From a virus (taxonomy: Duplodnaviria > Heunggongvirae > Uroviricota > Caudoviricetes), in IMG/VR virus record IMGVR_UViG_3300045988_147489, positions 20,848 to 84,847 of that record: a stretch of DNA of 64,000 nt; one strand, written 5' to 3'. Positions within the stretch are counted from its first letter, which is position 1; every line of letters begins with the position of its first letter. The position numbers were made by a program, and so were the translations under genes. Below, one piece after another: positions 4,075-50,610 of this stretch. The notes under the pieces were generated by a model, which saw only the letters and a program-made list of their open reading frames with translations, did no database searches and was not told the origin of the DNA.

Positions 4075-4081
4075 CAAGGGA

Positions 4082-8602: not shown

Positions 8603-8645
8603 TAAAGCAGGCCGCCTTAACGGGCGGCCATCACAAGGAAGTGAT

Positions 8646-11155: not shown

Positions 11156-11171
11156 GGGAAGTTTTTTGAAC

Positions 11172-20100: not shown

Positions 20101-23100
20101 AAAACGGGTTATCGACAGCTCAAAACAACATTGCCAAGAAGGCTGATGCTTCTGCATTGCAGGATCTCCGGAACACGGTGACATCTCAGGGTGATGATTT
20201 AACCGCGGCGAACAGCAGCATTACCAGCCTGCATGCCTCGATGAACCGTCGCACTGTGTTTACTGTCACTGCACGGGGTAATGGCAACAGCGTTACCCAT
20301 GGGGTGTTTGATGAAAGCGGCAAGAATCTGTTTACCCCTGGTCGCAGCTGGGCGCTGGTCACTTTTGCAAAACACAGCGACGGATCAACGGTGATTGCGA
20401 CCTCCAAAACATACGATGTCTTTGGCAGCGCGAATAATGGCGCCACGATGTCGGCTGATATCGAGGCACTGGCCAGTGGGACTTACGTTTGCGTCCTGAC
20501 ATTCGATGAGCCAACTGGCAACCGAGGTAAGGTGTTGTCTGCCCTGGAATCTCTTGGTGGCACTTCCGAAGTCGTTAACTCTCTGCCGTATCGTGGCGCC
20601 TACATTCTCCTTGGCCGCAAAGGTATGAAGCCGGGCGATGGTCTGGAACTGCGTGCGCCAACCGGTGGCGACGGCACCGCCCACATTTCGACCTCAGTCG
20701 AGTTTGTGAACGGGGTAATGATGGGGCTGGGCGCCGCTGGTGGTGTGATGATGAAGGCTGATGCGAACGCATCTGCAATTACCACGCTCCAGAATACAGT
20801 GAAGACCCAAGGGGATAATATTGACTCCCTGAGCTCCTCGACAACAGCGCTGGAAAACAGCCTTGCGTCCAGTAACGCCAGCGTGGATGCAGCAAGCCAG
20901 ATCCCCGGTAACCTGATCGTAAACCCGTCTTTTGAGCGTGGTACGGAGGGCTACACTGGTTGGAGCGGTATTGCCACGGTGGCAACGCTGCAGGTTCCAC
21001 ATCTTGGCACCAAAGCCGCCAAACTAGCGGCGGGTGGTTCTGCAGGCGTGGGCCAGAAGATCTCCTTCAAAAAGGATCGGTCGTACAAAATTGGTATTTG
21101 GGCAAAGCAGGACCCTAATACCACCATTCAGTCGACCGACAACACAAAATTCCGTGTGGCTGACGGTACTGGCCTGATTGCAAGTAAGGTTTATGGTCCG
21201 TTCACCTCGAACTGGCAGGAGGTGTCATGGACATGGAAGGCGACAAAGGATGTCCTTGCTGACGTTCAGTTCACTGCTTTCTTGTCAGCCGGCGCGATGT
21301 ACTTTGATGATTTTTACGTCGTCGATGTGACCGACTCAGTTGAAACTCAGGCGAACTCGAGTGCGATCACGAAGCTCGATAGTCGTGTGACCAAGACAGA
21401 GAATGACATCACCAGCCAGGGCAGCCAGGTTACGCAACTTAAGAATGACCTTGCTACCACAAACACAAATGTTTCGAAGAAAGCGGATGCAGCTGCGTTA
21501 ACGGCATTAACGAACCGCGTCACGCAGAATGAGAAAGAAATTGGAACCCAGAGCAGCCAGACAACTTCGCTCAAAAACTCTTTGAGCACTGTTCAGGCAA
21601 TGGGAAGCAACCCGTGGTTTGATGGTTCTCTGGAGACGTACTCCGAAAACCAGCAGATCAGCGGCTCGCGCGCGGTCGTCGTCAGCTCTCAGAAACGAAG
21701 CGGAACGAAGTCGTTGCGTGTTTCCCGCGGCGCCGGTGAGGGCGGAAACAGCGATAAAACCATCGGTAAGTGGATTGCTCTGCGTGAAAATGCGGTATTC
21801 CGCATTGAACTCTGGGCGATGATGCCGGCAGATCAGTCGCCATCATCCGGGTGGTCAACGCTCGTTGGTTTGCAGACCCAAAACGCTGCCAACAACAATA
21901 ACTGGCCGACGGCAATCACTATCAATGAAGCCGCATTGGGTGCAAGAGGCGCATGGAAGAAATTCACCGGTACGCTCCGTGTAGCCGCTGGCCACACTCG
22001 CGGCGCATTTTGGGTATCTACCCGCGGCACAACTGGCACTGGTACACCGGGGTATGATCTGTATATCGATGACGTTGTTGTCACCGATATCACCGACGCA
22101 AAAGAGGCTCAAGATTCGGCTAATTCGAACGCATCCGCGCTCACCAGCCTTACCTCACGTGTTACCAATGTAGAAGGGCAGGTGACATCCCAGGCGTCTC
22201 AGCTGTCCTCTTTGACGTCCCAGGTGAATGATGCGTCTTCGAAGGTTGATCAGATGGCGCAAACCATCACCAACAACGAGAAAACGCAGTCGTCGCTGAA
22301 TACCAGCTTGCAGTCGCAAATTGATGCGCAGGCATCGGCAAACATCAAGAACCAGACGGAGTTGAATAACGCCACCACTTCGATGGCGGCAATTAAATCA
22401 ACTCAGCAGACTCAGGCCACAACGATTAGTGCACTGTCTCAGCAGCAAACGAATTTAACGGCCCAGGTAGGAGGCCAGTCAGCCGAGCTGCAGGAGCTGA
22501 AGAAAACGGTTGTTGAAAACGGCAACGTTAACAGCACCTGGATGGTCAAAATGGAAACCAACAGCAACGGTAAAAAGTATGCTGCTGGTATAGCTTTAGG
22601 TATCGATGGCAAAAATTTGCAGAGCCAGTTTCTGGTTCAGACTGATCGCTTCGGCTTAATCAACACCTCTAACGGGAATACGACTACACCTTTCGTTATC
22701 GAAAATGGCGTTGCGTATATTAATGCCGCTGTCATTAAAGATGGCTCGATCACCAATGCGAAAATTGGAGGCGAAATCCGTTCTGACAATTTCGTTAATG
22801 GTTCAAATGGCTGGAGAATTGGAAAAGACGGTAGTTCACAGTTCAACAATGCGATATTCAGAGGTCATATTGAAGCGCGCAGTGGTACGTTCAAAGGAAC
22901 CCTGGAAGCTCAAAACTTTATTGGTGATATCGCTGTAGCTCGGCGTTATGCGGGTTTATCGTTCCGTCGTAACAACACCGTACAGCGTGATGGTCGTTAC
23001 CAGAACCGCGGATACGGTATGACTATTGTGCTAAGTTGCACCCTGATATATCAGGTTACTGGGGGGAATGAGGATCGTAACGGTTATATTGTTGAAATGA

Positions 23101-23330
23101 CATTTAACGTTGGCGGTCAGGAGGCAACTCGCAGTTTCCCGATCAACCCGCGAATGAATATGGGCTCCTACTCGATGGAGTTTCGTTTTGCAGCGGATAT
23201 TCCAGGCAACTATGACAACGTCCCGTTCTTTGTAAGAGCACGTGGTCGGGATGCTACTTGGAACTACCAGTGTTATGTAGAAAACATCACTGCCACTGCT
23301 TTCCGTACAAACAGCAACTCATTCAGCTAA
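11172..23330 (+). CDS. giant host-specificity / central tail fibre protein (gpJ-like N-terminus with repeat-expanded extension)
   Basis: single ORF of about 4050 aa; N-terminal about 800 aa has gpJ-like layout including an FN3-like segment; rest is repeated modules; TTG at 11166 is an alternative start. Confidence 0.85.
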   Translation: MDQFKKKRLPLLIAGAGGKKSSGSSRTPVEADDTVNSRAMASILDLLGEGVVGGLINGAKSIFIDGVALENEDGSFNYSGVTWDFRDGSQDQSPMPGFDFVETPKAVNTQLKTTNAVTVAIDNDDADRVRVIMKFPSLRSIDKKTGDTNGTSVQFKFQLANGNGSFYDVIATGESSSDVKLTAKKTGVYYRSYEIQLPKPGRAYKVRVLRLSADSNDQYLFNDTWVDSIGEIVDTPMNYPNSVLVGLKVNSEQFGSSMPSRSYLIRGLKIRVPSNYDENTNTYNGVWDGTFKLLSSSNPAWILFDLLTNARYGLGKFVSESMIDLGQLYQIGRYCDEEVDDGFGGKEKRFAINTQITSRQDAYRLIQDIAGAFRGMVFWAGGMVNIMQDSPSDPVMLFTNANVKDGLFTYKGSARKDRPSVALITYNNKQDGYKQNVEYVEDQEAMARYGERKTEAVAFGCTSRGQAHRVGLWLLYTARMESDMITFTAGLDASFLMPGETVLIQNKYRAGKRNSGRIVSFTKNSITLDAPVSLKKSGSFIRIINQEGKIVERDINETGDNITKVTFKTALATAEQPVANGVWTITEPDLVPMRARVVAIAQGETPGSFDITVVQNNASKYQAIDNGAALVPENTTVLDPTYSKPSNLVISEGTYLSSPGNLSVKLMLAWEGKSPEYWVSWRRSDEGNVSNWQSARATEEQYEIVNVAENGRYDFQLYSVSFGGKKSEIITAVYQVKGTMTPPGAPTSLTAVGDYRNVVLNWVNPDSVDLAQINVYASKTNKLDTATLIAQAATTTFTHAGLGDNETWYYWIRAVNKRGMVGQPNSNLGTEATTRDVLSFLKDKITSSELGKELLDEIDSKATQEAVDNAIGEVQNSVNESIQQVENDLAQTSSEIKAQVDSVNQSLKEDIKTVNQTIVDNIDAVNQTINTNISNVNSQIEAAKQSIKDGDAALSQEIKNAQSSLTTSLSQTSKDLTAAIQKETNDRIADVNDAAKQAADQLLSAKNELKTSIDSLSEVVTSGDENLARQISQIAAGTGEQFDSLKIWYFDQDAEGWTEDDNGYTPMSVTSDGWLKANNPTSTCRSPNGLTIDAHAYRFIKMRIKKVGNPTWNAKMFWIGADETGWNAGRSVVINEPEYDDKGIAILTLHDLEWRDSTTIRRFRFDFTSGQDTDNYLLFDWIAVGRPTPGAGMAALQEEQQARANADTAEAQARSTLAAQIRGSSESGNLDDIRSGLIYQEKNARITADAAEASARESLQTEFNRNKASVAEELHTLSTEQASQASKITGLQTSLGQKADASAVQTISQKVEEQGNTLKSQGAALSTLDNRVGSVESGVSANSKAITGLQSTVTQQDKTLSSQSESITTLNNSLSDIQSDTDTAKSNPSNLLVNASFERDLAGWSAGNSVSNVIKASAPHSGSKILVCAAGTVQITQSVSVVEGRTYKLSSFVRCTTDAVISSPGNNKLRIGAATLLKEIPIRPENLPKDETWKEVSDTWKATLTGKVDVSIMSSLKTGSQYFDDVGFVDVTDALAIEANASATNALTSRVSSVEGTITSQGQQITSMQNSIKNKADASAVTNLANRVTAAENQISSQSQSITSLSNSLDNANADADASKAIIGNMLKNNSFERGFEGWEYVGWTLLEAQNPKSGKYIIQAGKLASGGDSGCNQTIELQAGKTYRIGAWVRKSADFAINNAGNNKISLRNADLTPIKDIPITGAGLSTNWALISGEYTPAKTASVVVSLRASVASGYMYLDDVFCVDVSNEKAIDATSNALSTLNSTVTQQGKDITSNSNSITSLSNQMVNGRQNMWVRSVYNVQLANNTTEPTFSDINGKAPISIDEVPDAAKLDFASAGSYVIAHYKAFVKVNADTTITMAPGSRVFDDTGAVYVNGVRVAFGNASWNTVSFDLKAGWSTVEFLVNQWTGQAYINLGFKLSEKVAQLNSALGMNALSNAISAVTSNVSTVGDRVTSTSQSVTDLRNSLEQTNANLANKADAQALSTLQNTVSKQGDTISSQGNSITNLNNTLTAARNSGDNLIPNYDFLQGATAWDIQYPAGVAFGNFGDGKAGVKLNRTTTTSPGIFSNNNKPLPLNGQRKYRVVVKAKGVSGAMNMLIRRQNKIGQTDSNYEDKNVTLTSEWQTITWETGLTASNADGQNFKLYAHPANAEIWVDTFKVFDITDEVKIKANSDALSTLSSTVTQQGDKITSQGNSITKLTNDLEAADANIAKKADQSAVTTLTGRVEKTESGLTAANSNITSLSSSLSQQSKRGANLLPDGTFESYAVGHNLSNNRVIVTTDDSHGGNKCIRVTRPNDYNANATDNSDNHIFSGFQVRDNAVFYMECWVKLDANSTAMAENTQISIGLSLQYQDNSWQWPAVTKAAKDLSTAQWTKVSGYLKSTKSGIKQAMVRISIPNVSSVKAGNSFLIDDLVITEVTDAYNAQSTADANANAISTLDSTVSQQGDQITSQGNSITKLTNDLATTNNNVSKKADQSALSVLSGRVDQTESGLSSANSSITALNSSVRAGNATSGDLISNPTFDPEFSQMGFTVVPSSSEGVPANCPYAYVARIAARDHHPNFAAIPATLGDVYEMSALVACGTGSADFNLYLGTATRPSGSVGAPLSSGGNRKASATWQRVTWRFKITQGIVDRGFFRPFLQINQSSPFGTVWYVTDWHLRNVTDSSKVQDSLDATAKAVDSLTSTVNQQGENISSIGTRTTNLENNLRTTNANVAQKADANALTALTNRVTQTEKDINSTSSSVTNLNNKVDAISVGGTNLIKNSGDMTGWSNVVSDTYRGNAVIGATVKAGSGYRDLREITLESPVDAGEYVYSFYAKGGVAGQIMTAFFYNPNTTTSIETSQGAKGNNSDGRAQFTLTTSWARYWVKWKQTPTTSTKRLILCRIESNTSKDQTVYINSPKFEVGNVVSDWNESPSDSASASAVDSLTTKVNQQGTSISSIGNRTTSLENGLSTAQNNIAKKADASALQDLRNTVTSQGDDLTAANSSITSLHASMNRRTVFTVTARGNGNSVTHGVFDESGKNLFTPGRSWALVTFAKHSDGSTVIATSKTYDVFGSANNGATMSADIEALASGTYVCVLTFDEPTGNRGKVLSALESLGGTSEVVNSLPYRGAYILLGRKGMKPGDGLELRAPTGGDGTAHISTSVEFVNGVMMGLGAAGGVMMKADANASAITTLQNTVKTQGDNIDSLSSSTTALENSLASSNASVDAASQIPGNLIVNPSFERGTEGYTGWSGIATVATLQVPHLGTKAAKLAAGGSAGVGQKISFKKDRSYKIGIWAKQDPNTTIQSTDNTKFRVADGTGLIASKVYGPFTSNWQEVSWTWKATKDVLADVQFTAFLSAGAMYFDDFYVVDVTDSVETQANSSAITKLDSRVTKTENDITSQGSQVTQLKNDLATTNTNVSKKADAAALTALTNRVTQNEKEIGTQSSQTTSLKNSLSTVQAMGSNPWFDGSLETYSENQQISGSRAVVVSSQKRSGTKSLRVSRGAGEGGNSDKTIGKWIALRENAVFRIELWAMMPADQSPSSGWSTLVGLQTQNAANNNNWPTAITINEAALGARGAWKKFTGTLRVAAGHTRGAFWVSTRGTTGTGTPGYDLYIDDVVVTDITDAKEAQDSANSNASALTSLTSRVTNVEGQVTSQASQLSSLTSQVNDASSKVDQMAQTITNNEKTQSSLNTSLQSQIDAQASANIKNQTELNNATTSMAAIKSTQQTQATTISALSQQQTNLTAQVGGQSAELQELKKTVVENGNVNSTWMVKMETNSNGKKYAAGIALGIDGKNLQSQFLVQTDRFGLINTSNGNTTTPFVIENGVAYINAAVIKDGSITNAKIGGEIRSDNFVNGSNGWRIGKDGSSQFNNAIFRGHIEARSGTFKGTLEAQNFIGDIAVARRYAGLSFRRNNTVQRDGRYQNRGYGMTIVLSCTLIYQVTGGNEDRNGYIVEMTFNVGGQEATRSFPINPRMNMGSYSMEFRFAADIPGNYDNVPFFVRARGRDATWNYQCYVENITATAFRTNSNSFS
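13680..22520 (+). repeat. internal tandem modules within the J gene (about 11 copies of coiled-coil segment plus CBM-like beta-sandwich domain)
   Basis: recurrent peptide blocks such as STVTQQGDKITSQGNSITKLTNDL...KKADQSA and domain starts such as NASFERDLAGW, NNSFERGFEGW, NPSFERGTEGYTGW; matching DNA repeats e.g. CAGGGTAACAGCATCAC at about 17235, 17818, 18603; coordinates approximate. Confidence 0.7.
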
Positions 23331-37737: not shown

Positions 37738-37812
37738 GATGGTGTAGCTCAGCGGTAGAGCAGTTGGCTGTTAACCAACTGGTCGGTGGTTCGAATCCAC
37801 CCACCATCGCCA
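37738..37812 (+). tRNA. tRNA-Asn (anticodon GTT)
   Basis: cloverleaf folded by hand: 7-bp acceptor GATGGTG/CACCATC, anticodon loop CTGTTAA, T-loop GGTTCGAATCC, CCA end. Confidence 0.8.
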
Positions 37813-37817
37813 ATTTA

Positions 37818-37904
37818 GGGGAGTTAGTCCGTAGAGGTAGCGGTGTAGACTGTAAATCTACTGTCATGGCGACTCGGGTGGTTCGACTCCATCACTCCCC
37901 ACCA
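37818..37904 (+). tRNA. tRNA-Tyr (anticodon GTA), long variable arm
   Basis: acceptor GGGGAGT/ACTCCCC, anticodon stem-loop GTAGA-CTGTAAA-TCTAC, T-loop GGTTCGACTCC, CCA end. Confidence 0.75.
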
Positions 37905-37908
37905 AATT

Positions 37909-37984
37909 GCCGGTTTAGCTCAGTTGGTAGAGCGCCTGCCTTGTAAGCAGGATGTCAGCGGTTCGAGTCCGTTAACCGGCACCA
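37909..37984 (+). tRNA. tRNA-Thr (anticodon TGT)
   Basis: acceptor GCCGGTT/AACCGGC, D-arm GCTCAGTTGGTAGAGC, anticodon loop CTTGTAA, T-loop, CCA end. Confidence 0.8.
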
Positions 37985-37992
37985 ACATAATA

Positions 37993-38073
37993 TTGAGAAC
38001 ATTGGCGTAACGGGTTCATATCCCAATTTATGAATATAATGTTGCGTTGCAGCGTGACAACCAGTGTTCTCAA
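37993..38073. repeat. long-range inverted repeat C immediately 3' of tRNA-Thr
   Basis: TTGAGAACATTGG ... CCAGTGTTCTCAA (1 mismatch). Confidence 0.5.
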
Positions 38074-38278
38074 CATTGTGGTGAATGCACAGGCTGATGT
38101 GCGACGTAGAAGCAAGCGGATGAACTGCCTGAAGGCCGCTAACGTAGGCAATGCCGGAGATCAGCACCGGCCATCACAATTTGGCTCTCTTGCAACAGCA
38201 TAACGCTGAAATACGTCCAACCTGGTGCGGTCTGATCACCCGCCGTTAGCTCCACGAAACGGAGCACACAACACAATT

Positions 38279-38365
38279 GGAGAGTAGGGAGCATGGTGCT
38301 CAAGCGGTCTTGAAAACCGTCCCATTGTGCAAACGATGATGGTTCGATTCCATTACTCTCCGCCA
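38279..38365 (+). tRNA. tRNA-Ser (anticodon TGA), long variable arm
   Basis: acceptor GGAGAGT/ACTCTCC, anticodon stem-loop GCGGT-CTTGAAA-ACCGT, T-loop GGTTCGATTCC, CCA end. Confidence 0.65.
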
Positions 38366-39464: not shown

Positions 39465-40793
39465 CTATTGTGCGTACTCGCCCAATTTTAATGTTTCACG
39501 CTTATATTCATCAACTATCTCACATGATTTAATATAGATATGGCACAATAGGTTATCACTATCATCATTATCGTTTATTGCCATAAGTGCCAACTTTTTC
39601 TCATATTCATCGATCGCATCACTCAACTGATCACCTGTAATTACATCTGACTCACTCGAGAAATATAACTGCCCAAGATTTACCGCATTTTTTCCAGTTT
39701 TTCTTTGCTCTATGTAATTTTTAATCATATCCTTCACATCCTTTTCACTACTCAGTATTTCACTTTCGAAATGGACATGCTCTGAAATCGACGCGACTCT
39801 GCAACCGATCAAACGATGAATATAGTCATCAATAGACGTAACACTATCATTAGCTTTTTTTAGTGCTTCATCAAAAATGCTCTTTACCTCATTTGGCAAA
39901 TTTTTAAAATAATCATCAATTAAACCAGATAATGGTGTTTGGTAGTTCATTAATACCGATGAAGCAACTTGCGGACGACGAGCCACCCAGATTTCTTTGA
40001 CTTCAACTTGAGAATAATATTCCTTAATCACGTTCCAAAAGTATTTTAACATCTTGGTTTTAAATATTTTATCAAATCTATCCTTTATAAATAGCTCTAC
40101 TTCAGGCATGCTTGAATAAGCATCATCAAAGAATATTTCATCTTTGAAAAAATCATATTTATTTAATAAAGCATACAGTTTTTTTGAATCCAGCGGTTCA
40201 CGAGAATCGATGTCCAATCCAAAAACTGCAATAACCAACTTCATTTGCGGTGGTATTTTTCCACTCAATTGAATAATATATTCCATTTTTTCATCAAAAC
40301 AATTTCCATCTATGTAAAATCGGTTATCTACATAGACTAATATATTGGTAATATGTTTTATGTACTGAATAACCTCATGCTTTCTTACCAATGGATAAAA
40401 AAACGAATGCATTTCATTTTTATTAAATTGTTTTTTTGTCTGTTCAATGATTGGTATGACATTATTGTACAACTCATCATGCTGATTTAATAAAGTGTCA
40501 AACCATTCTTTGAAAGAATTTTTTCTCATCTCAATCAATGAATCGGTAGTTATCCTAACGGCCTCCAGTGCTGCCTTTGCACTTTTTCTTGCTTCATAGG
40601 CGTTCCACGCTGTTGCACAAAAAGCCGCTGTCGTTATAAAACTACTCAATACAGCAATTTGGTCTGTAACCTTCCAATCTTGAAATGGCTCAAGTAGTAA
40701 ACCTAAAAACAAAATTATTATGGAAAACATTAGAATTGCAACAGAAATAAAAACAGGCATGTATGCTCTCGTACTTACCATTGTTAGTTGCAT
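39465..40793 (-). CDS. 442-aa membrane protein of unknown function (two N-terminal TM helices plus large cytoplasmic domain); candidate accessory/defence gene
   Basis: long ORF on opposite strand to surrounding genes; strongly AT-rich; no catalytic motif recognised. Confidence 0.5.
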   Translation of the reverse strand: MQLTMVSTRAYMPVFISVAILMFSIIILFLGLLLEPFQDWKVTDQIAVLSSFITTAAFCATAWNAYEARKSAKAALEAVRITTDSLIEMRKNSFKEWFDTLLNQHDELYNNVIPIIEQTKKQFNKNEMHSFFYPLVRKHEVIQYIKHITNILVYVDNRFYIDGNCFDEKMEYIIQLSGKIPPQMKLVIAVFGLDIDSREPLDSKKLYALLNKYDFFKDEIFFDDAYSSMPEVELFIKDRFDKIFKTKMLKYFWNVIKEYYSQVEVKEIWVARRPQVASSVLMNYQTPLSGLIDDYFKNLPNEVKSIFDEALKKANDSVTSIDDYIHRLIGCRVASISEHVHFESEILSSEKDVKDMIKNYIEQRKTGKNAVNLGQLYFSSESDVITGDQLSDAIDEYEKKLALMAINDNDDSDNLLCHIYIKSCEIVDEYKRETLKLGEYAQ

Positions 40794-41388: not shown

Positions 41389-42492
41389 ATGAAAAATAGC
41401 TTTGACAGAGCACGCGCTGCGGAGAACACCTCAAAAGAGGCGATTGAGTATCTCGAAAGAGCATCTCAAATGCAGGCCGTTATGATCTCGCAGGTCAGCA
41501 ATGACATGAGATTCTCGGACGCATTCATGTTATTCACTCGCTTATCTCTGCTGATAACAAGACGTCGGCCAGAGATCGCTGTTCATTGTATTTTGATACA
41601 TGTTTTGCCGCACATTGCCGATGTAAAAGTAAGTGACATTAATAGGTTCATGGTGAACCAACTGGTCAACCCACTAATACTGGATGGCAAAATTGTTATG
41701 GGCCGCCGCGTTTTCTCTCTGATGAAGCAGTTCCTTAGCTGGTGCGCCTTCCAGGGGATGATAGACGTGTCACCGTTAAACGATATGTCACTAAACAAAG
41801 TTGCCGGTGGCGCAAAGCCTACACCTCGCGAGCGGAAGCTGACCGACGCAGAGGTATGGGTGTTCTGGAATATATGGGACTACTTCAATGTGTGCGCTGG
41901 TACAAAATGGGCGGCCAGGCTGTGTCTTGTATCCGCAAGACGACCTGACGAAGTACTGCGGGCTAAAAAAAGTGAGTTCAATCTTAAGCGTGGGGTTTGG
42001 AATCAAGGCAAGAGGAACAAATCTGCCCGTGAGCATTCTCTGCCTTTAAGCTCATTAATGCGCACTTGTATTGAAGAGTTGTTCGAATATGGTAAAGACA
42101 GCCAGTGGCTCGTGCCTTCGAATAAAAAAATCGGGAAAGACCTTCCTATGTCTAAAGTGGCAATAGCCCAGGCATTACGTCGTATTCTGGAACGACCAGA
42201 ACTGATGGAGCTTGAGCCATTTACACCCCGAGATTTGCGCCGTACTGCGCGTAGTTACTTCCCAGCATTAGGCATAAGCCAGGAGGTATCACGTAAAATC
42301 ATGAACCACAGTCTTGAGGGGATAGATCGGGTCTACGACCGGCACGATTATATGGACGAGATGCGAGACGCCTTAGAAAGTTTCTCGACGTACATCGCAT
42401 CAATCGTAGAGCAACCGGATTTAGACGAAATTGACCACAAATTTAAGGGAGATCGTCTATCAACAGAGCTTATTCGTGTAAATTTTTCATAG
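41389..42492 (+). CDS. tyrosine recombinase / phage integrase family protein
   Basis: C-terminal catalytic-domain pattern with conserved Arg/His/Tyr (LRRTARSYF, HSLEGIDRVYDRHDY). Confidence 0.75.
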   Translation: MKNSFDRARAAENTSKEAIEYLERASQMQAVMISQVSNDMRFSDAFMLFTRLSLLITRRRPEIAVHCILIHVLPHIADVKVSDINRFMVNQLVNPLILDGKIVMGRRVFSLMKQFLSWCAFQGMIDVSPLNDMSLNKVAGGAKPTPRERKLTDAEVWVFWNIWDYFNVCAGTKWAARLCLVSARRPDEVLRAKKSEFNLKRGVWNQGKRNKSAREHSLPLSSLMRTCIEELFEYGKDSQWLVPSNKKIGKDLPMSKVAIAQALRRILERPELMELEPFTPRDLRRTARSYFPALGISQEVSRKIMNHSLEGIDRVYDRHDYMDEMRDALESFSTYIASIVEQPDLDEIDHKFKGDRLSTELIRVNFS

Positions 42493-42873
42493 AGACTTTA
42501 TGGCCTCAACAACCTTTTGTGATGCGCCTTTCTCTTTACCGAATCGCTCGTTATATGCAGCAAGAACCTGTTTTTCGTCCTCGTTAAGAGGAGCAGTGCC
42601 TTCTTTGTATAAAAATGCTGCGAGTTCGGGTTGGCGTTCTTCCAGCACCATCATCATAAGACGACTTGGCTCAATGCCCAGTGCCAGCGCCAGCGGACGA
42701 ACCTTATCGATAGGCAAAGGAATTTTGCCGCTTTTAATTAAAGAAAGGTTGTTGGCGTTTTTATACCCAATTGTTTTGGCTATCTGGGCCTGGCTCATAG
42801 GTGAGGATTCAATCAACCCTGCGATAAAAGCAGCATAGCGACTTTCTATAAATTCAATCTTGTTGTCAGACAT
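42487..42873 (-). CDS. HTH (XRE/Cro-CI-like) transcriptional regulator
   Basis: helix-turn-helix signature QAQIAKTIGYKNANNLSLIKSGK; 3' end overlaps integrase 3' end by 6 bp. Confidence 0.6.
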   Translation of the reverse strand: MSDNKIEFIESRYAAFIAGLIESSPMSQAQIAKTIGYKNANNLSLIKSGKIPLPIDKVRPLALALGIEPSRLMMMVLEERQPELAAFLYKEGTAPLNEDEKQVLAAYNERFGKEKGASQKVVEAIKSL

Positions 42874-43123: not shown

Positions 43124-43336
43124 ATGAACACCACTATTTCCAGCCTAATCGCTCTTGAGATCGGACACGTACAGAAATTAGCTGATGAGTGTGTAGCTGA
43201 CATCCTCACCGATCTACCGAATGAGCAGATTCAGGTTGGTGTGAATGACACAACTGGCTTTATATTCGAACTTAACAACAAACGCTTCACGCTTCTCAAT
43301 ATCGGCTCCGGGTCTTTAGCCGTCAGAATCTGTTAA
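43124..43336 (+). CDS. hypothetical small protein
   Basis: 70-aa ORF; followed by 9-bp-stem hairpin CTGCGCGAA...TTCGCGCAG at about 43350-43383. Confidence 0.3.
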   Translation: MNTTISSLIALEIGHVQKLADECVADILTDLPNEQIQVGVNDTTGFIFELNNKRFTLLNIGSGSLAVRIC

Positions 43337-43434: not shown

Positions 43435-45543
43435 ATGTCTAAAAAACGTTCCATCAAAGAGGTTCAGGACTTCCGTGACAGTGTAAAACGAGTAGTCGCT
43501 CTCCTTTCAGGTAAAAACATCCCTGTTGCAGAACGAGGGGACGACGCTTATGTACGCTATAACGATGATGGAGAGCCAATTCTCGTAAACATCCCATCAA
43601 TCCCGGATAACGCAACACCGGCATTGATGAATGCTGTGCGCGGATTTCTCGATCATGAGGTTGCTCACATTTTGTTTACCGATATTCGTGTGTCCAACAA
43701 AATGAGAGAAAAAGGACGCGTTCCTTCCTGGTCGCTATGGAATGCCTTAGAAGACGTGTTCATCGAGCGAAAAATGGGTCAGGTCTTTAACGGAACAAGA
43801 CGTAATCTGATGGCAACTCAGCGCCTTATAATCGAAAAAGTCTTTAAACCAAAGGCTTCAGAGGCTATTGCTTATTGTGGCAAAGATCAGCGCGCGCTTT
43901 TTCTAAACTTCTTTCTCTGTCCGGTTGTAAGAGCCTGGGATGGCCAAGCACCGTTCGTAGATTTCATGGATGAATACTGGCCTGTCATTGAGAAACCAAT
44001 TTCATTATTAAAAGAACATGGTATCGATGTGGCCGTGCGTAACATGTCTTGCACCGAGGATTGTGTAAAGGTGGCTGCGACCATAGCTAAGATCCTCAAA
44101 GACACTGAAAGTGAAAGCAAAGGTAAGGAGTCAGCTCCGGGAAAAACTTCCGATCCTTCAGACGCTGACCAGACGGATGCCTCTGGAGAAAACAATGAAG
44201 ACAACGAAGATCATGAGACACCCTCATCGTTAGATAATCACAAATCTATCGAATCAGAATCACATAGTAAGCACAAACATGATAATAACGACAGCGATGA
44301 TTCAGATAATTCTGAATCATCAGAAACAATATTCGATGATACAGAAAATGATAAAGAGGTATCAGATTCTGATGCTTCTGATAACGCGGCGTCAGAATCA
44401 TTAACCGCTGACCACGAAAAAAGAAAAACGACAGAAGACGGCTCTTCAGATATCCCAACTCCGTCAAAAATGAGTCTGGAAGAGGCTTTAGAGGAGCTGG
44501 ATAGCATAGAAGATGAAGTCGGAGGCATGACAGAAGATGCTCTATCCGAAACGATTAAAAGCGAGTTAACAGAAAGCTCGAAAAGCGAATACAGGCCATA
44601 CAATCGCTCATACGACTTCATCGGCTCGATTGATCAGGCAGAAGCCCATATCAAACGGCTTATTAAAACATTCTCCGATATTGATTTGGGAGGATATCCA
44701 ATCAGCCGCTATCGCATCGTTCCTGAAGGCAACCAGCTCTTCGACAAATATATTGAAAAGCATCTTTCGTCAGGTGTTTCGTCGACGCTGGCAAAAGACC
44801 TGGAGCGAGCAATAGCAAGCAGAAACAGAGTTCAGTTTATACCGGGCCAGCGTCGGGGGCGCATTCATGGTTCTAGTATCTACAGATTAGCAATGAATGA
44901 TGCTCGCGTGTTTCGTAAAAAAGAAGAATCTAAAGCCGTTAACGCCTGTGTTCAACAAGTGATTGATTTATCAGGTTCAATGAGTGGTATAACGATTAAA
45001 CTGGCTCTTGCAAGTGCATATACCATCGCCGATGCCCTTGATCGAATAAATGTTCCCAACATTATCACCGGCTTCACTACATTTGGTAGTCATATGGCGG
45101 CAGGAGAACTTAAGGCTGTCAAGTATGAGTTCTCTCGCTTTGAATCTTTAATGCTACCTATCATCAAAAATTGGAATGAAAAGGTAAATTCTCGCGAAGT
45201 TCGCTCACGTATGGGGTGCGTAGGCTACACATTCCCACTTCTTAATAACGTGGATGGTGAAAGCATAGCCAGCCTTGCATCGTTATTTTCCGGTCGCTTG
45301 GAGGACAGGAAGATCATGCTTGTTCTGAGTGATGGCGCGCCGTGGGCTGTTGGGAGAGGTTTTGACGCTCATTTGCGTTCAGTTGCGAAGCAAATTGAAA
45401 CGCAGACTGATATTGATTTGATGGCAATTGGCATCATGACTGACGCACCGGAGAGATTTTACTCAAATCATGCCCTGGTAACGAGCGTTGATAGTCTTGG
45501 TTCATCTGTAGTTACTGAACTATCTCGTATCATTTTAAAGTGA
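43435..45543 (+). CDS. von Willebrand factor A domain protein with long acidic Ser/Asp-rich linker (CobT-like architecture)
   Basis: MIDAS motif VIDLSGSMSG; low-complexity acidic region about aa 230-370. Confidence 0.65.
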   Translation: MSKKRSIKEVQDFRDSVKRVVALLSGKNIPVAERGDDAYVRYNDDGEPILVNIPSIPDNATPALMNAVRGFLDHEVAHILFTDIRVSNKMREKGRVPSWSLWNALEDVFIERKMGQVFNGTRRNLMATQRLIIEKVFKPKASEAIAYCGKDQRALFLNFFLCPVVRAWDGQAPFVDFMDEYWPVIEKPISLLKEHGIDVAVRNMSCTEDCVKVAATIAKILKDTESESKGKESAPGKTSDPSDADQTDASGENNEDNEDHETPSSLDNHKSIESESHSKHKHDNNDSDDSDNSESSETIFDDTENDKEVSDSDASDNAASESLTADHEKRKTTEDGSSDIPTPSKMSLEEALEELDSIEDEVGGMTEDALSETIKSELTESSKSEYRPYNRSYDFIGSIDQAEAHIKRLIKTFSDIDLGGYPISRYRIVPEGNQLFDKYIEKHLSSGVSSTLAKDLERAIASRNRVQFIPGQRRGRIHGSSIYRLAMNDARVFRKKEESKAVNACVQQVIDLSGSMSGITIKLALASAYTIADALDRINVPNIITGFTTFGSHMAAGELKAVKYEFSRFESLMLPIIKNWNEKVNSREVRSRMGCVGYTFPLLNNVDGESIASLASLFSGRLEDRKIMLVLSDGAPWAVGRGFDAHLRSVAKQIETQTDIDLMAIGIMTDAPERFYSNHALVTSVDSLGSSVVTELSRIILK

Positions 45544-45638
45544 ACAAAACAGCCTTAATGATAAGTTACTACTTACGATAGATGATGATATATTTATATA
45601 AGAAGTTGAACGCTCATTAGAGAACAAAGGAAAAACGC

Positions 45639-46874
45639 ATGACGACTACTGCACTGCAAAATGAAAAAAATCCTTCTGATTACCTTGTTTGCAAGTGGTG
45701 CGGCAAATCATTTCACTATTTTAAGTCCCATGTAGCCAATGGTAATTGCGAGGGCATTCCTGAGTCAGTAAAAGATGCCGATCCTGACACCGTACTGAAA
45801 ATGTACACAACGCAGTTTCCAGATGAACCAACGCTATCGAAAAAGGCACTTGATGCAATTCAAGCTAAACGTGCCGAGCAAAAAAGCGAAATGGCCAAAT
45901 CTTCTGGCTTGACCAGTAGCCCTGGCTACACAGGCACAGTTGAGTACAAGATGGATCTGGTCGCAGCTCACGAACTGCTAAACGTAACGGTGGAAGAACT
46001 CGGAACAAAACGTGGGACGCCGCTCATGGTTAGCGTCAACGTCAATACGCCGTATCCAGAGTTCGTTCCCGAAGTGAAGAAAGGCTACGTATATGGCGAC
46101 TTCGAACTGATCAAAGATATTTTCATGATGCTTGAACTTGGCATACCTGGCTATTTGTGGGGTCATGCAGGAACAGGCAAATCGTCATTGCCTACACAGC
46201 TATGTGCTTTGCTCAATCGTCCGTTGATCCGTGCCCAACATACAGCATCAATGGAAGAGGCACATGTTACGGGGCAAATTCTGGCGCGTGATGGCTCTAC
46301 GTATTTCGAACCTGGCTTGCTTGCGCTCGCAATGAAGCATGGCTGGGTTTACCTCGCGGATGAATACGACTTTGCGTTTCCACAAATTCTTGGCGTGTAT
46401 CAGCCAGTGCTGGAAGGTGAAGCGTTGGTCATCAAAGAGGCAACTCCAGAATGGCGTCGCATTACTCCGCATGAACGGTTTGCTTTCATTGGCACTGGCA
46501 ACACGAACGGATCTGGTGATGAAACCGGCTTGTACCAGGGTACAAACATCCAGAACGCCGCGAACTTTTCGCGTTTTGGCATCGTTTCGAATGTGAAATA
46601 CATGAGCAAAGACGCAGAGATCAACATGTTGACAAATGCAGGCATCGTGGATGAATACGCTGAAAAGATGGTTAAGTTTGCCGGTATCGTTCGCGATGGA
46701 TACGAAGAACACCTTATTAGTCAGCCAATTGGCCCTCGTGAACTTTTGTTGTCGGCCAAGATTGGAATGATGCGAGGCGACTTTGTGACAGGTATTGAGC
46801 GTTCTTTCATTAACAAACTCCCTTCAGCTTCTGCACAAGCGGCTCGTGAAGTTGTTCAAAAAATATTTGGTTAA
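45639..46874 (+). CDS. AAA+ ATPase (MoxR/CobS-like) with N-terminal Cys cluster
   Basis: Walker A GHAGTGKSS, Walker B VYLADEYDF; CxxC...C..C near N-terminus. Confidence 0.65.
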   Translation: MTTTALQNEKNPSDYLVCKWCGKSFHYFKSHVANGNCEGIPESVKDADPDTVLKMYTTQFPDEPTLSKKALDAIQAKRAEQKSEMAKSSGLTSSPGYTGTVEYKMDLVAAHELLNVTVEELGTKRGTPLMVSVNVNTPYPEFVPEVKKGYVYGDFELIKDIFMMLELGIPGYLWGHAGTGKSSLPTQLCALLNRPLIRAQHTASMEEAHVTGQILARDGSTYFEPGLLALAMKHGWVYLADEYDFAFPQILGVYQPVLEGEALVIKEATPEWRRITPHERFAFIGTGNTNGSGDETGLYQGTNIQNAANFSRFGIVSNVKYMSKDAEINMLTNAGIVDEYAEKMVKFAGIVRDGYEEHLISQPIGPRELLLSAKIGMMRGDFVTGIERSFINKLPSASAQAAREVVQKIFG

Positions 46875-46876
46875 TC

Positions 46877-47080
46877 GTGCGTAAAGGATGTTTCGGCTCT
46901 CTTATCGCTGCTTCTGAAACTGGTAAGGCTTGTCTGGTGTGTCCAGACAAGCCCGATTGTCACCAATCAGCAAAAGAAGTTGCGATTTCGATGCATGGGA
47001 AGTTCGTAGGCTTCCCCAATGACAAAATCAAAAAAACCAGAAAGGTAAAAACACATGAAGGCACTGATGGTTCGAACTGA
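46877..47080 (+). CDS. small Cys-rich hypothetical protein
   Basis: 67-aa ORF with GTG start, overlaps polymerase start; weak. Confidence 0.2.
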   Translation: MRKGCFGSLIAASETGKACLVCPDKPDCHQSAKEVAISMHGKFVGFPNDKIKKTRKVKTHEGTDGSN

Positions 47081-50000
47081 CTTCTCACTTGGGGAGTCGG
47101 CTTTAAAAGCAGAAAACGCGGTGAAGATTGCCAGAGAAGCTGGCTACACCGCTGTAATTTCAGCAGATAGCATGAATATTGCGAGCGTTATTCCACTACA
47201 ACGTGCCGCTGGTGACGACATGGCGGTTATTTGTGGTGTGAAACTAAACATTGTTGATGATCCCACATACGAGCACCGGGTTAAACTTGCTAAAGAATCT
47301 ATGAGATGTATGGAATCATTAGAGCGGGGACGTAACTACTCGTTTACCGCTCTAATTAAAAATGAGCAAGGATATCGCGACATCTGCGAACTAATGACGG
47401 TGGCCAACACACGAGAACAGTTCTACTTTGTACCGCGTCTCTCGCTCGAACAGTTGGTTTCTACATATGCCAAAGGCAACATCATCCTGCTCACTTCCGA
47501 CATCGATAGCGTGTTCCAACGCAACGATTTTGCAAAAATCACAAGCTCACTGATTACAGCGGGCGGGAAAGACAACTTCTATAGCGTGGTTTATCCGCAC
47601 CCTACCCCATTCTACGACCAGATTAACGTCCGGGCGATGAAAGTCGCCAGCGCATTGAAAATAGAGCCAGTGGCGTTCTATCCCGCTTATTACGAATCGA
47701 TCGACGATGCAGACATTAAAGACATTGCGCACATGGTTACGAACAACATAAAAATCGACCAGCCGCATCGTCTGCGTATCCCCCACCAGCGAGATAACGC
47801 CATCAATGGTCGTCGCCATCTCCTTGAGGCGCTTAAAGCCTTCTCCATTCGCATGGATGTGCCGGTAACAGCTGCAATGGCCTCAACAACGCAGGATACC
47901 ATTATCGATGCCTGCACATGGCGCTGGCATGAATTGCCACCAGCACTGCCCAAGATGGCAGACGACGAACCTGCAACGCTGATGAAACTGGCTGTTGCAG
48001 GGCTGCGTAAACGTCTTACCACAAAAGAGTTTGGATACACACCACCTGCTTCTGAGAACAGGGTTTATGTTGAGCGGCTAAAGTACGAAATGGACACGCT
48101 GACTCGCCTGGGATTCTGTGGTTACTTCCTGATGGTGCGCGATCTGATGAATCATAGTCGTGAAACTGGCATTCCCGTTGGGCCTGGTCGTGGTTCCTCT
48201 GCCGGTTCTCTGGTGGCGTGGTGCATAGGCATAACCAACGTCGACCCAATCCGTCACGGTCTTCTGTTTGAGCGTTTCATCAACCCTGAGCGTCTCGACT
48301 TGCCGGATGCGGACTTGGACTTCAGCCAGGCACGTCGCCATGAGGTGATCGAGTATCTGAATGAACGCTACGGCGAAGATTACGTTGCAGGCATTCCGAA
48401 CTTCACCTACCTGGGCGCAGCCTCTGCACTACGTGACACCGCTCGTATTTATGGTGTGGAGTCCGCAGATATGGCGGTATCAAAAGAACTGAAGAACGTC
48501 GAGGATGATAGCCTTCCATTGGAAGAGCTGCGCGAACAACTGGCAAGTCTCGACAAATACGCAACAAAATATCCTGATGCATTCAATGCAGCCTGCAAGT
48601 TACAAAGCCTTATGCGTGGCTTTGGTAGACATGCGGCAGGGATGATCGTAGCAGGTGTTCCTCTGACAGAACGTACACCGGTTGAGCGCCGTGGTGACGC
48701 GCGTTGTATCGCATTTGACAAGCGTTACTGCGAGGCTATGGGCCTAATTAAGCTGGACGTACTTGGTCTGGCAACTCTCGATTTGCTCGATAGTGCAAAA
48801 CGCTACATAAAAGAGAACACAGGTGAAGATATCAATCTTGATGCCATTTCTCTTGAAGATCGCAAGGTGCTGGATGGTTTTGCTGCTGGGTACACTCAAG
48901 GTGTTTTCCAGCTTGAATCAGGCCCAATGCGCAAGCTGCTTAAAGATTTAGGTGGTGGAATTGAGCCAATGAGCTTTAAAACGGTTGTTGCTACGACTGC
49001 GCTCTTCCGGCCGGGGCCAATTCAGTCAGGCATGTTGGATGACTATGTTTCTGTAGCCAAAGGCTTTATGACGCCGGAATCATTACACCCCGTTCTTGAT
49101 GAACTTACCGCAGAAACAAATGGCGTGATTCTCTATCAGGAACAGACGATGAACGCGACTCGATTGCTTGCTGGCTTCACAATGGCTGAAGCTGACGGCG
49201 TTCGTAAAGCGATCGGCAAAAAAGACATGGAAAAAATGAAGAGCATGGGCGAGAAGTTCATCGTTCAGGCTCAAGCTGGCTGGATAGACGTTGAGCTGGA
49301 AGATGGCACTACACAGCGCATTCACCGTGCGGAACATTTTAAATGCGAAGACGGAACTCTGAAAACTGTCGAAGAGGCACTTGAGTACGGCGCAAAACTA
49401 CCTATAAACGCAGTACGCGTTACAGCGTCACATCCAGGGCTATCAGAGATGAAAGCGAAGGAGATCTGGACCGCATTCGAAAAGAATGGTGCCTACCAGT
49501 TCAACAAATCACACTCTGTTGCTTACTCCTTAATCAGTTATCAATCTATGTGGTTGAAAATTCATTATCCCGCGGAGTTCTTCGCTGCTGCTCTCACTAT
49601 TCTTGGCGAAGATAAACACCAGGGGCTGGTTAAAGATGCGCTGACCTATGGTATTCGCGTATTGCCACCAGACGTTAACGTGTCATCTAACCGAATCGAG
49701 ATCCGCACGCTTGAAGATGGCAGCCAGGTGCTGTATGCGCCCTTCTCTGCTGTGAAAGGGTGTTCTGAGAATGGCTGCCAAGCCATCATGAGAGCGCGAG
49801 AAAAAGTTGGCGGCAAATTCGAGTCACTGGCGCAATTCGAAGAAGCTGTCGAGAAACGTGCCTGTAATAGTCGAGTGCGCGAATCGCTGCAAAAAGTAGG
49901 GGCGTTTGCATCCATCGAGCCAGGCAGTCTGCCAGCAACTGATCCAGAGCGCCTACGCGACCAGGCTGAATTGATGGGAAACCTTGTCATAGACGCAGTT

Positions 50001-50573
50001 AAAGCCTCACGTCCGTTTGAGATGAACCCCAAACGTTCGGCTGAAATTAACGTACTCATGACGCGGATGGCGGCTGAAATGGGCTTAGGTGATGAACTAA
50101 TCCGCCCCAGCATTGGTATTAAGCCGAAAATCATGATCATTCTGGACAATGCGAACGGCAATGATGCTCGAACCGGTTACTTTATGGAGAACGGATACGA
50201 CGACTTTAAGGCCAAGCTATTGACGGCTGGAGATTTACGCATGGGCGATCTCTATGTCACAGGTGTTTGCAAGAAGGTTAAAGACAAAGAAAAAGACTAC
50301 ACCAAAGACGAGATCGGCCAGTTCACCGACTTTATGCGTGAAGAGATCAATCTGGTGCGTCCGACCTATGTGCTGACGTGTGGCAGCCGGGCAACTTCAT
50401 TGTTTAACAACAAAAACAAGCCATCCGATTTGGTCGGCAGGAAGGAGTATCTTCCAGACCTTGACGTTACTGTCTTTTACGGGTTTAACCCCAACATTCT
50501 TTACTTCAGACCTGAAGAGGGAGAACGACTAGAAGCGATATTAACCGACGTAGCAGAAACTATTAAGTCGTGA
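47055..50573 (+). CDS. DNA polymerase III alpha subunit (DnaE-like, with PHP domain)
   Basis: palm-domain signature GPGRGSSAGSLVAWCIGITNVDPIRHGLLFERFINPER...LPDADLDF; length 1172 aa. Confidence 0.85.
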   Translation: MKALMVRTDFSLGESALKAENAVKIAREAGYTAVISADSMNIASVIPLQRAAGDDMAVICGVKLNIVDDPTYEHRVKLAKESMRCMESLERGRNYSFTALIKNEQGYRDICELMTVANTREQFYFVPRLSLEQLVSTYAKGNIILLTSDIDSVFQRNDFAKITSSLITAGGKDNFYSVVYPHPTPFYDQINVRAMKVASALKIEPVAFYPAYYESIDDADIKDIAHMVTNNIKIDQPHRLRIPHQRDNAINGRRHLLEALKAFSIRMDVPVTAAMASTTQDTIIDACTWRWHELPPALPKMADDEPATLMKLAVAGLRKRLTTKEFGYTPPASENRVYVERLKYEMDTLTRLGFCGYFLMVRDLMNHSRETGIPVGPGRGSSAGSLVAWCIGITNVDPIRHGLLFERFINPERLDLPDADLDFSQARRHEVIEYLNERYGEDYVAGIPNFTYLGAASALRDTARIYGVESADMAVSKELKNVEDDSLPLEELREQLASLDKYATKYPDAFNAACKLQSLMRGFGRHAAGMIVAGVPLTERTPVERRGDARCIAFDKRYCEAMGLIKLDVLGLATLDLLDSAKRYIKENTGEDINLDAISLEDRKVLDGFAAGYTQGVFQLESGPMRKLLKDLGGGIEPMSFKTVVATTALFRPGPIQSGMLDDYVSVAKGFMTPESLHPVLDELTAETNGVILYQEQTMNATRLLAGFTMAEADGVRKAIGKKDMEKMKSMGEKFIVQAQAGWIDVELEDGTTQRIHRAEHFKCEDGTLKTVEEALEYGAKLPINAVRVTASHPGLSEMKAKEIWTAFEKNGAYQFNKSHSVAYSLISYQSMWLKIHYPAEFFAAALTILGEDKHQGLVKDALTYGIRVLPPDVNVSSNRIEIRTLEDGSQVLYAPFSAVKGCSENGCQAIMRAREKVGGKFESLAQFEEAVEKRACNSRVRESLQKVGAFASIEPGSLPATDPERLRDQAELMGNLVIDAVKASRPFEMNPKRSAEINVLMTRMAAEMGLGDELIRPSIGIKPKIMIILDNANGNDARTGYFMENGYDDFKAKLLTAGDLRMGDLYVTGVCKKVKDKEKDYTKDEIGQFTDFMREEINLVRPTYVLTCGSRATSLFNNKNKPSDLVGRKEYLPDLDVTVFYGFNPNILYFRPEEGERLEAILTDVAETIKS

Positions 50574-50580
50574 TCCAATA

Positions 50581-50610
50581 AACATGGCCTCTATGGCCAT
50601 GTTTTCTCTT
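50581..50610 (+). terminator. terminator-like hairpin
   Basis: AACATGGCC-TCTAT-GGCCATGTT then TTCTCTT. Confidence 0.5.

Follow-up and report, generated by a model that had tools for sequence, protein, structure and literature searches.

The main finding of this study is that the adjacent cobT-like and cobS-like genes carried by an E. coli phage-plasmid in all likelihood do not encode a cobalt chelatase in this host. Our proposal for what they do encode is more tentative, its chances being somewhat short of even: a phage-type CobS/CobT-like motor that would act in the lytic cycle as an ATP-driven clamp or remodeller, and probably as a protease, on a client tied to phage DNA replication. The two genes lie on the + strand of a 64,000-nucleotide stretch of the IMG/VR virus record IMGVR_UViG_3300045988_147489, which we analysed whole and refer to as the window, and they encode a CobT-like adaptor of 702 residues (43435-45543) and a CobS-like AAA+ ATPase of 411 residues (45639-46874). 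Judged by its sequence, the window is an SSU5-type E. coli phage-plasmid, because its pair region is 99.4% identical to Escherichia phage CMS-2020a, 98.4% identical to phage Cyrano and ~75% identical to Salmonella phage SSU5, and is contained in 464 PLSDB plasmids from Escherichia, Enterobacter, Yersinia, Salmonella and others, nearly all of them non-mobilisable. As an object the gene pair is already known and widely deposited, both proteins having thousands of database entries in which they are called "cobaltochelatase CobT-related protein," "porphyrin biosynthesis protein" or "AAA family ATPase"; a prior annotation of this DNA made from the letters alone (the sequence-only reading) called the role unresolved, which is how the literature to 2026 still treats the viral pair. 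Two precedents are of direct relevance. For a MoxR-vWA pair of jumbo phages, it was already noted in 2021 that the vWA protein has a metallopeptidase domain fused to its N-terminus (Iyer et al. 2021), and the chelatase relative CobSTN was solved structurally in 2026 (bioRxiv 10.64898/2026.07.21.739949).

A CobT-like adaptor and a CobS-like ATPase

Profile matches from Pfam, NCBIfam, PHROG and PDB bear out the assignment made in the sequence-only reading, which had described a vWA protein carrying a MIDAS motif (metal ion-dependent adhesion site) next to a MoxR/CobS-like AAA+ ATPase and had placed both open reading frames (ORFs) where we find them. The adaptor matches Pfam CobT over residues 9-294 (E 1.7e-27) and the CobT_C vWA domain over residues 492-701 (E 1.8e-81; 44908-45537), as well as phrog_1576 (E 2.8e-300) and, over residues 440-697, the solved cobaltochelatase CobT (PDB 9uka, E 1e-16). 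The MIDAS and the acidic region of about 140 residues that had been noticed earlier are both present: the MIDAS is complete (D511-x-S513-x-S515, T548 and D633) and invariant in five distant homologues, and residues 225-372 (44107-44550) form a disordered linker of 148 residues with 24 D, 24 E and 28 S and a net charge of -37. Acidity of the linker is kept among homologues while its length and sequence vary, and genuine CobT has a disordered linker of ~90 residues at the equivalent position, which makes the linker ancestral rather than a phage innovation. Residues 465-501 (SRNRVQFIPGQRRGRIHGSSIYRLAMNDARVFRKKEE; 44827-44937) are a candidate shaft segment: in a phmmer alignment to 9uka_G they correspond to the "shaft" of CobT, which inserts into the ring of CobS and is delimited as Q373-R413 by the CobSTN preprint (bioRxiv 10.64898/2026.07.21.739949), and G471 and G475 are invariant among homologues. 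The acidic/middle region of the adaptor has no Pfam family at E<=10, and PADLOC gives the protein no defence affiliation, its only match being a marginal one to DrmE (E 0.0011, residues 340-533) that lies partly over the acidic linker.

The ATPase matches AAA_5, a dynein/MoxR-related family (E 2.1e-15), phrog_249 (E 1e-106) and, over residues 142-411, solved CobS (PDB 9ujv, E 1.1e-25), with further PDB matches to the CbbQ/NorQ relatives 5c3c and 9qh4. Its catalytic segment (46161-46364) runs from Walker A (G175-S182, GHAGTGKS, 46161-46184) to Walker B (D241-E242 in VYLADE, 46347-46364), both of them conserved, and N288, R312 and R367, which are invariant in five homologues, align to the sensor-1, arginine finger and sensor-2 of CobS, residue roles being taken from the CobSTN preprint. 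The N-terminal extension of 140 residues has no Pfam family at E<=10 and is not found in genuine CobS or in ICP2-like or cyanophage homologues; tblastn coverage of the latter begins at residues 68-143 of the ATPase, mostly at 115-143. For this extension a cysteine cluster had been claimed, which stands in part: there is a conserved motif there, but it is C2H2-like and zinc-finger-like (C18-x2-C21-x4-H26-x4-H31; CKWCGKSFHYFKSH, residues 18-31, 45690-45731), and C37 is unconserved. The motif is common to Pseudomonas phage ZY21, degenerate in a Rhizobium phage, and not in the ICP2-like and cyanophage homologues.

An HExxH site in the CobT-like N-terminal domain

What the sequence-only reading overlooked is HEVAH (residues 74-78; 43654-43668), an HExxH motif of zinc-binding/catalytic type in the putatively zincin/M48-like N-terminal domain of the adaptor (residues 1-225; 43435-44109). 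It is followed by NALEDVFIE (residues 103-111; 43741-43767), a "glutamate helix" containing N103, E106, D107 and E111 that is a candidate source of the third metal ligand. Searched against 1.84 billion representative proteins, this N-domain gave 1125 clusters at E<=1e-3, and in a conservation set of 128 sequences (the window protein and 127 near-full-length proteins among the best 150 matches, at ~35% identity) H74, E75, H78, E106, D107 and E111 are invariant in 128/128 and N103 is found in 124/128. Of nine homologues compared from diverse phages and one genomic island, eight have HExxH and only that of ZY21 does not. Those with the motif include proteins of a Rhizobium phage, an ICP2-like vibriophage, a member of the Zobellviridae, roseophage CRP-810 and a genomic island of Salmonella, and also the 702-residue "peptidase" beside cobS in T4-like cyanophage S-SM1; N..ED...E accompanies HExxH in all of these but the ICP2-like homologue, in which, as in ZY21, it is degenerate.

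Genuine CobT differs at precisely this site. HExxH occurs in none of 120 homologues of the CobT N-domain 21vu_H (0/120; all those with a source name are cobaltochelatase subunit CobT), where the site reads D-[SA]-[MI]-A-L-[RK]. When the phage N-domain profile is aligned to 21vu_H with hhalign (E 2.5e-4, 43% probability, 167 columns), DSMALR of the chelatase is paired with DHEVAH of the phage protein, and the two glutamates are kept in the chelatase. In the sequences compared, HExxH is a clean discriminator that separates the viral family from true chelatase CobT, and one that this analysis adds.

The predicted structure is compatible with a peptidase-type site. An AlphaFold model of residues 1-225 (predicted local distance difference test score 91.5) begins with a helix and three strands, continues with the HExxH helix (62-81) and the Glu helix (99-117), and has more helices after these, which is the element order of CobT_N (helix, three strands, then helices), a fold described as M48C peptidase-like in the CobSTN preprint (bioRxiv 10.64898/2026.07.21.739949). 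E106 and E111 are on helix 99-117 of the model, so that HExxH is predicted to be followed by a glutamate on the next helix, as in gluzincins and M48-like proteins. Foldseek finds no match for this model in PDB at E < 1, and among viral models it recovers the N-domain attached to vWA proteins from siphoviruses and podoviruses as well as from actinophages and haloarchaeal tailed viruses. Against Pfam at E<=10, residues 1-225 match CobT only and no peptidase family; the sole peptidase-labelled match is phrog_459 (E 1.6e-7, residues 72-128). The "peptidase" label carried by viral homologues is, on these comparisons, not obviously a mistake. When searched against PDB sequences, the N-domain profile did not recover genuine CobT_N, and its best match was a short one to the anti-CRISPR AcrIIA26 (9zq6_B, E 0.0036; N-x-V-E-D-x-F-I-E and ~40 residues). 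We set aside this likeness of residues 103-111 as short, weak and probably fortuitous.

Evidence against a chelatase in this host

Against the corresponding NCBIfam chelatase equivalogs, neither protein comes anywhere near the cut-off: 86.6 bits for the CobS-like protein against TIGR01650 (cut-off 558.55) and 67.6 bits for the CobT-like protein against TIGR01651 (cut-off 759.05). There is no CobN among the 126 annotated features of the 98.4%-identical Cyrano, and the only very large ORFs in the window are a tape-measure-sized one (4061-8602), a gpJ-like tail protein and DnaE; the motor would therefore lack a chelatase client. In the CobSTN holoenzyme, CobT_N and the vWA domain grip CobN between them, and CobN makes no contact with CobS (bioRxiv 10.64898/2026.07.21.739949). 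According to the literature, B12 synthesis in E. coli requires ~30 heterologous genes including cobN, cobS and cobT, and Salmonella uses the anaerobic route (PMC6249242). The ribonucleotide reductase of Cyrano is class Ia NrdAB and B12-independent. In marine metagenomes cyanophage cobS is a one-copy core gene that is invariant with depth, unlike a niche-dependent metabolic gene. Among the features of a chelatase, the AAA+ catalytic residues, the MIDAS and the shaft segment are all found in alignments to 9ujv and 9uka, and the degenerate N-domain site is not.

Gene neighbourhood across mobile elements

The sequence-only reading had placed the pair directly upstream of DNA polymerase III alpha, and DnaE is indeed found at 47055-50573 with a 67-residue ORF in between. 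It had also named beforehand, as its own refuting test, whether the pair is conserved with the replication module, and this conservation is what we observe. Word-indexed protein searches and viral-contig scans are dominated by near-identical SSU5-type relatives and say little on diversity, which we judged from 50%-clustered representative proteins and a scan of one genome per species. The latter yielded 29 loci, found in gamma-, beta- and alpha-proteobacteria, in Desulfosarcina, on a Phormidium contig and elsewhere; the contigs that carry them often measure 96-118 kb. Flanking sequence is sufficient in 22 of the loci, and in 21 of these the pair has DnaE behind it, in the order helicase-primase-ligase-CobT-CobS-DnaE-UvsY-gp32-exonuclease-RecA, at identities down to ~30% (tblastn with the replication proteins of the window). 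This gene order is shared by phages SSU5, Pseudomonas ZY21 and Rhizobium RHph_N1_10. Two loci are odd. A Vibrio sp. D404a contig (L179, 10001-10762) has a 253-residue ORF consisting of the N-domain only, with no vWA, cobS-like gene or dnaE downstream, so that the module looks decayed or rearranged, and in the other (L182) the pair is on a short contig and is followed by other genes.

Parallel associations are seen elsewhere. In Zobellviridae podoviruses CobS-CobT are in one block with PolA and primase/helicase, and in T4-like cyanophage S-SM1 the order is gp47-gp46-"peptidase"-cobS-gp45-gp44-gp62. An ICE-like (integrative and conjugative element) genomic island of Salmonella Typhimurium (AB571791.1, 804-8797; L191) carries an AAA ATPase, ssb, bet and an HExxH-vWA protein; its ATPase is of NorQ/CbbQ type (AAA_5 and CbbQ_C), and the vWA partner of 598 residues has HEAAH and is homologous to the CobT-like N-domain, which shows that the motor/peptidase pair is not confined to viruses. 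The pair is found inside replication/recombination clusters in four unrelated kinds of mobile element: it is a fixed part of a DnaE replication module across Proteobacteria and has parallel associations in the three other kinds.

Transcription unit and expression in the lysogen

The unit probably starts with a 70-residue ORF (43124-43336, +; phrog_2627) just downstream of a divergent helix-turn-helix (HTH) repressor gene, and its last gene is dnaE, which encodes a DnaE-type DNA polymerase III alpha of 1172 residues on the + strand. Between the pair and dnaE, the 67-residue Cys-rich ORF (orf67; 46877-47080, +; phrog_6337) starts 2 nt past the stop of the cobS-like gene and shares 26 nt with the beginning of dnaE, so that these three genes abut or overlap. 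A site scan found no + strand terminator-like site downstream of the 70-residue ORF up to the end of dnaE (50573), and 7 nt past the dnaE stop there is a terminator-like hairpin with a 10-bp stem and a T-rich tail (50580-50604, +); terminator-like sites in the region are in total not above chance, and this hairpin is suggestive by its position only. The count of sites in a promoter scan of the region was likewise not above chance, and no convincing promoter for the unit emerged. From this layout, the pair and dnaE appear to be co-transcribed. As side observations, orf67, which has Cys/His residues at C5, C19, C22, C28 and H29, was detected in enterobacterial relatives only, including Xenorhabdus and Morganella. 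The C-terminal ~145 residues of DnaE (50133-50573) are an extra domain that matches phrog_13175/phrog_4335 and, weakly and below cut-off, the family-4 uracil-DNA glycosylase TIGR00758 (E 2.3e-7), the last 197 residues having no Pfam family; DnaE may be a polymerase fused to a domain resembling uracil-DNA glycosylase.

In the Cyrano lysogen of LF82 the pair is switched off together with dnaE. In normalised RNA-seq values the cobT-like gene reaches 7.8, the cobS-like one 6.7 and dnaE 10.1, versus 95.8 for the adjacent repressor and 141 for hicB, these values coming from the supplementary table of the Cyrano study, in which ratios in the main text imply a local background of ~9.6. Silence in the plasmid-prophage state argues against roles in lysogenic conversion and plasmid maintenance, the latter having been among the phenotypes suggested by the sequence-only reading, and fits a lytic-cycle function.

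A proposed lytic-cycle motor with a putative peptidase site

Starting from the domain identities, motifs, conservation, gene context and lysogen expression described above, we infer how the pair might assemble, whether it cleaves and what its client might be, the assembly by homology to CobSTN. The CobS-like protein would form an AAA+ hexameric ring, on whose ATPase lid the N-domain of the CobT-like protein would dock. Nucleotide binding would bring the "shaft" (residues ~465-501) into the pore of the ring, and the client would be clamped between the sheet edge of the N-domain and the MIDAS face of the vWA domain, as CobN is in the chelatase. In zincins, the substrate lies along the sheet edge beside the HExxH helix. 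Because an intact HExxH is predicted at this client-holding edge, the client is probably cleaved there. Most likely it would be a protein of the phage or of the host that has to be processed or removed for lytic DNA replication or recombination, which is suggested by the apparent co-transcription with dnaE, the silence in the lysogen and the location in replication clusters in four kinds of element. Our proposal has parts in common with the chaperone or remodelling system for replication or virion assembly that the sequence-only reading had put forward, of which the replication half fits the gene context.

Several points weigh against this proposal. Much of the DnaE synteny comes from one broad clade of ~110-kb elements, so that part of it may reflect inheritance of the module as a whole, and the neighbourhood may reflect shared timing of expression rather than function. 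The lysogen data speak to silence in lysogeny and not to lytic induction. ZY21 (Nickievirus, 6847-8931) is a natural "dead-site" variant resembling chelatase CobT, with neither histidine (SEISK) and with D107 changed (LES for LED), and it still keeps the pair at the same position in the replication module; catalysis is hence not universally required. HExxH could be a metal-binding site without a proteolytic role. Finally, we found no experiment on any viral cobST pair in the searchable literature. Two narrower ideas fared worse. A clamp-loader-like role of the ATPase, prompted by the lack of a sliding clamp or clamp loader in the annotated Cyrano record, was dropped, since the ATPase falls in the MoxR/chelatase branch and in T4-like cyanophages the pair is present together with the phage's own gp44/62 and gp45. 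Maturation of DnaE specifically was given less weight, because in other lineages the partner of the pair is PolA or a T4-type replisome.

A bolder form of the proposal, which we regard as unlikely, is that the pair is a replication-associated AAA+ motor and zinc protease that clears or processes proteins on DNA during phage and ICE replication, a prokaryotic-virus analogue of eukaryotic p97-SPRTN/Wss1 from which the cobaltochelatase CobST was derived. Among its clients might then be roadblocks, proteins that are crosslinked or trapped, or some factor of the replisome or of recombination, and chelatase CobST would have lost the peptidase site and gained CobN as a permanent client.

Alternative explanations

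The view that prevails in the literature, which Liu et al. 2021 put forward in so many words and phage genome papers have taken up, is that viral CobST is an auxiliary metabolic gene product that hijacks host CobN and so raises cobalamin for DNA synthesis. It draws on a clear homology to cobaltochelatase CobS and CobT that includes the MIDAS and the shaft, and we nevertheless find it very improbable here: the element has no annotated CobN and a B12-independent class Ia ribonucleotide reductase, E. coli is without the aerobic corrin pathway and that of Salmonella is anaerobic (PMC6249242), the scores are far under the equivalog cut-offs, HExxH is intact, the genes are silent in the Cyrano lysogen, and cyanophage cobS in the ocean is a one-copy core gene rather than a niche-dependent metabolic one. 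On the published account of its B12 synthesis, this host would exclude the standard hijacking of CobN, a point that this analysis contributes. A function in the plasmid state, such as maintenance, copy-number control or partition, is hardly credible. That the element is a plasmid-prophage, and that the region is carried by so many PLSDB plasmids, would speak for it; yet in the Cyrano lysogen, where the repressor and toxin-antitoxin genes are transcribed, the pair does not rise above background, RepA, ParA and ParB are encoded elsewhere, and strictly lytic phages (ICP2-like phages and cyanomyoviruses) also have the pair.

Virion assembly by a chaperone with a processing protease, comparable to the MoxR-vWA pair in tail development of the archaeal virus ATV, was proposed by Iyer et al. 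2021 for the jumbo-phage MoxR-vWA-metallopeptidase pair and would suit MoxR-vWA pairs, which generally are assembly or maturation chaperones. We consider it rather unlikely, since in every lineage examined the neighbours are replication/recombination genes and not head or tail genes, the pair apparently shares a unit with dnaE while the structural genes are ~20-40 kb away, and ICE-like elements, which make no virions, have homologues too. Host takeover or counter-defence, in which the motor-protease would remove or inactivate a host protein, for instance one of defence or of the nucleoid, early in the lytic cycle and the acidic linker might mimic nucleic acid, strikes us as rather unlikely to the same degree. 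The early/middle gene region, the broad spread over unrelated mobile elements, the long polyanionic linker and the Glu-helix match to AcrIIA26 can be cited for it, but such genes are usually variable accessories whereas this pair is a conserved core at a fixed position over deep divergence, the linker is ancestral, PADLOC returned nothing meaningful and the AcrIIA26 match is short and weak. A metallochaperone like NorQ/NorD, CoxD/CoxE or CbbQ/CbbO, inserting or exchanging a metal in a phage metalloenzyme (for example the PHP domain of DnaE, or NrdB) with HExxH as a metal-holding site rather than a protease, is distinctly unlikely. The ATPase is related to CbbQ/NorQ, that of the ICE-like homologue has CbbQ_C, the closest characterised relative is a metal-insertion machine and the adjoining DnaE has a PHP domain; elsewhere, however, the neighbours are PolA, a T4-type replisome or ssb/bet, with no metalloenzyme in common, and an M48-like fold bearing HExxH and a Glu helix is what marks out hydrolytic zinc sites.

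Neighbouring genes and annotation

Other features of the window were recorded in passing. Directly upstream of the cobT-like unit are a tyrosine integrase (+) and an overlapping, convergent HTH repressor (-) at 41389-42873, which SSU5 does not have at this position. Four tRNA genes are clustered at 37738-38365 (Asn-GTT, Tyr-GTA, Thr-TGT and Ser-TGA), compared with three annotated in Cyrano and one in SSU5 within the stretch examined. Between this cluster and the integrase, in the stretch of lowest GC in the window (0.385-0.395), is a 442-residue ORF (39465-40793, -) with N-terminal hydrophobic segments and no family by Pfam or PADLOC; in Cyrano its slot is occupied by a different gene, CYRAN_43, by far the most expressed gene of the lysogen, which makes the slot a candidate position for cargo or defence. 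The gpJ-like tail-tip ORF (11166-23330, 4054 residues) has FNIII-A_GpJ, Phage-tail_3, ILEI and C-terminal Phage_Tail_Tip domains, and its counterpart in Cyrano is a J protein of 1575 residues with a separate fibre of 1341 residues. In the Cyrano record OV696614.1, CYRAN_47 and CYRAN_48 are mislabelled "dimethylbenzimidazole phosphoribosyltransferase" and "cobalamin synthetase," which are unrelated Salmonella enzymes sharing the gene names cobT and cobS.

Significance

Viral cobS/cobT are among the most widespread pairs that are routinely labelled "auxiliary metabolic gene": they are single-copy core genes of marine cyanomyoviruses, give a Zobellviridae subfamily its name, and occur in haloarchaeal viruses, actinophages, ICE-like elements and hundreds of enterobacterial phage-plasmids. 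The common annotation of the pair is probably wrong. If the pair is not a chelatase, "B12 metabolism" has been wrongly inferred from it in viromes, and phage DNA replication has a conserved component still to be characterised. The E. coli phage-plasmid is a convenient test case, with a host that according to the literature is without CobN and the aerobic corrin pathway (PMC6249242), with close relatives (Cyrano, and PhiR41_1 on K-12) that are inducible and genetically tractable, and with CobSTN structures that point to the residues to target. The contrast between intact and degenerate HExxH points to a route, open to testing, by which the chelatase could have evolved from a motor coupled to a peptidase.

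Comparison with known systems

The closest parallel is with CobS and CobT of CobSTN (PDB 9ujv, 9uka, 21vt and 21vu), which like the window pair are encoded by two adjacent genes and have the same Walker A/B, sensor-1, arginine finger and sensor-2, CobT having its parts in the same order as the adaptor of the window (N-domain, disordered linker, shaft and vWA-MIDAS). The window differs in that no CobN is annotated in the element, HExxH is kept, the ATPase has a C2H2-like extension of 140 residues, the genes are in a replication operon and not a cob operon, and the scores are far below the equivalog cut-offs. Mg-chelatase BchI/BchD (ChlI/ChlD) is likewise an AAA+ motor whose partner has an acidic or proline-rich linker and an integrin-I/vWA MIDAS. 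However, the N-domain of BchD is AAA+-like rather than M48-like, and the enzyme requires a porphyrin-binding H subunit, which is absent here. The MoxR-class AAA+/vWA pairs (RavA-ViaA, NorQ-NorD, CbbQ-CbbO, CoxD-CoxE and ATV p618) also combine an AAA_5-type ATPase with a client-capturing vWA-MIDAS cofactor, and the jumbo-phage pair of Iyer et al. 2021 has the same fusion of vWA and N-terminal metallopeptidase as the window protein. Known pairs of this class have enzymes of respiration or carbon fixation, or virion tails, as their targets, whereas that of the window is in a DNA-replication context and is closest in sequence to the chelatase branch. Compared with M48 zinc metallopeptidases (Ste24/ZMPSTE24 and HtpX) and other gluzincins, the phage domain matches no Pfam peptidase family, is soluble and fused to vWA, with no transmembrane segments noted, and its peptidase activity is putative. 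Lastly, the viral "cobST" of other lineages (PHROG 1576/249; cyanomyovirus cobS with the "peptidase" T4-GC146; the Cobavirinae of Zobellviridae; haloarchaeal tailed viruses) is the same two-gene unit as in the window, sharing HExxH, the acidic linker, the vWA-MIDAS, the AAA_5 ATPase and replication/recombination neighbours. To this unit the lineage of the window adds the pairing with DnaE, the C2H2-like extension of the ATPase and the dnaE-coupled Cys-rich ORF of 67 residues.

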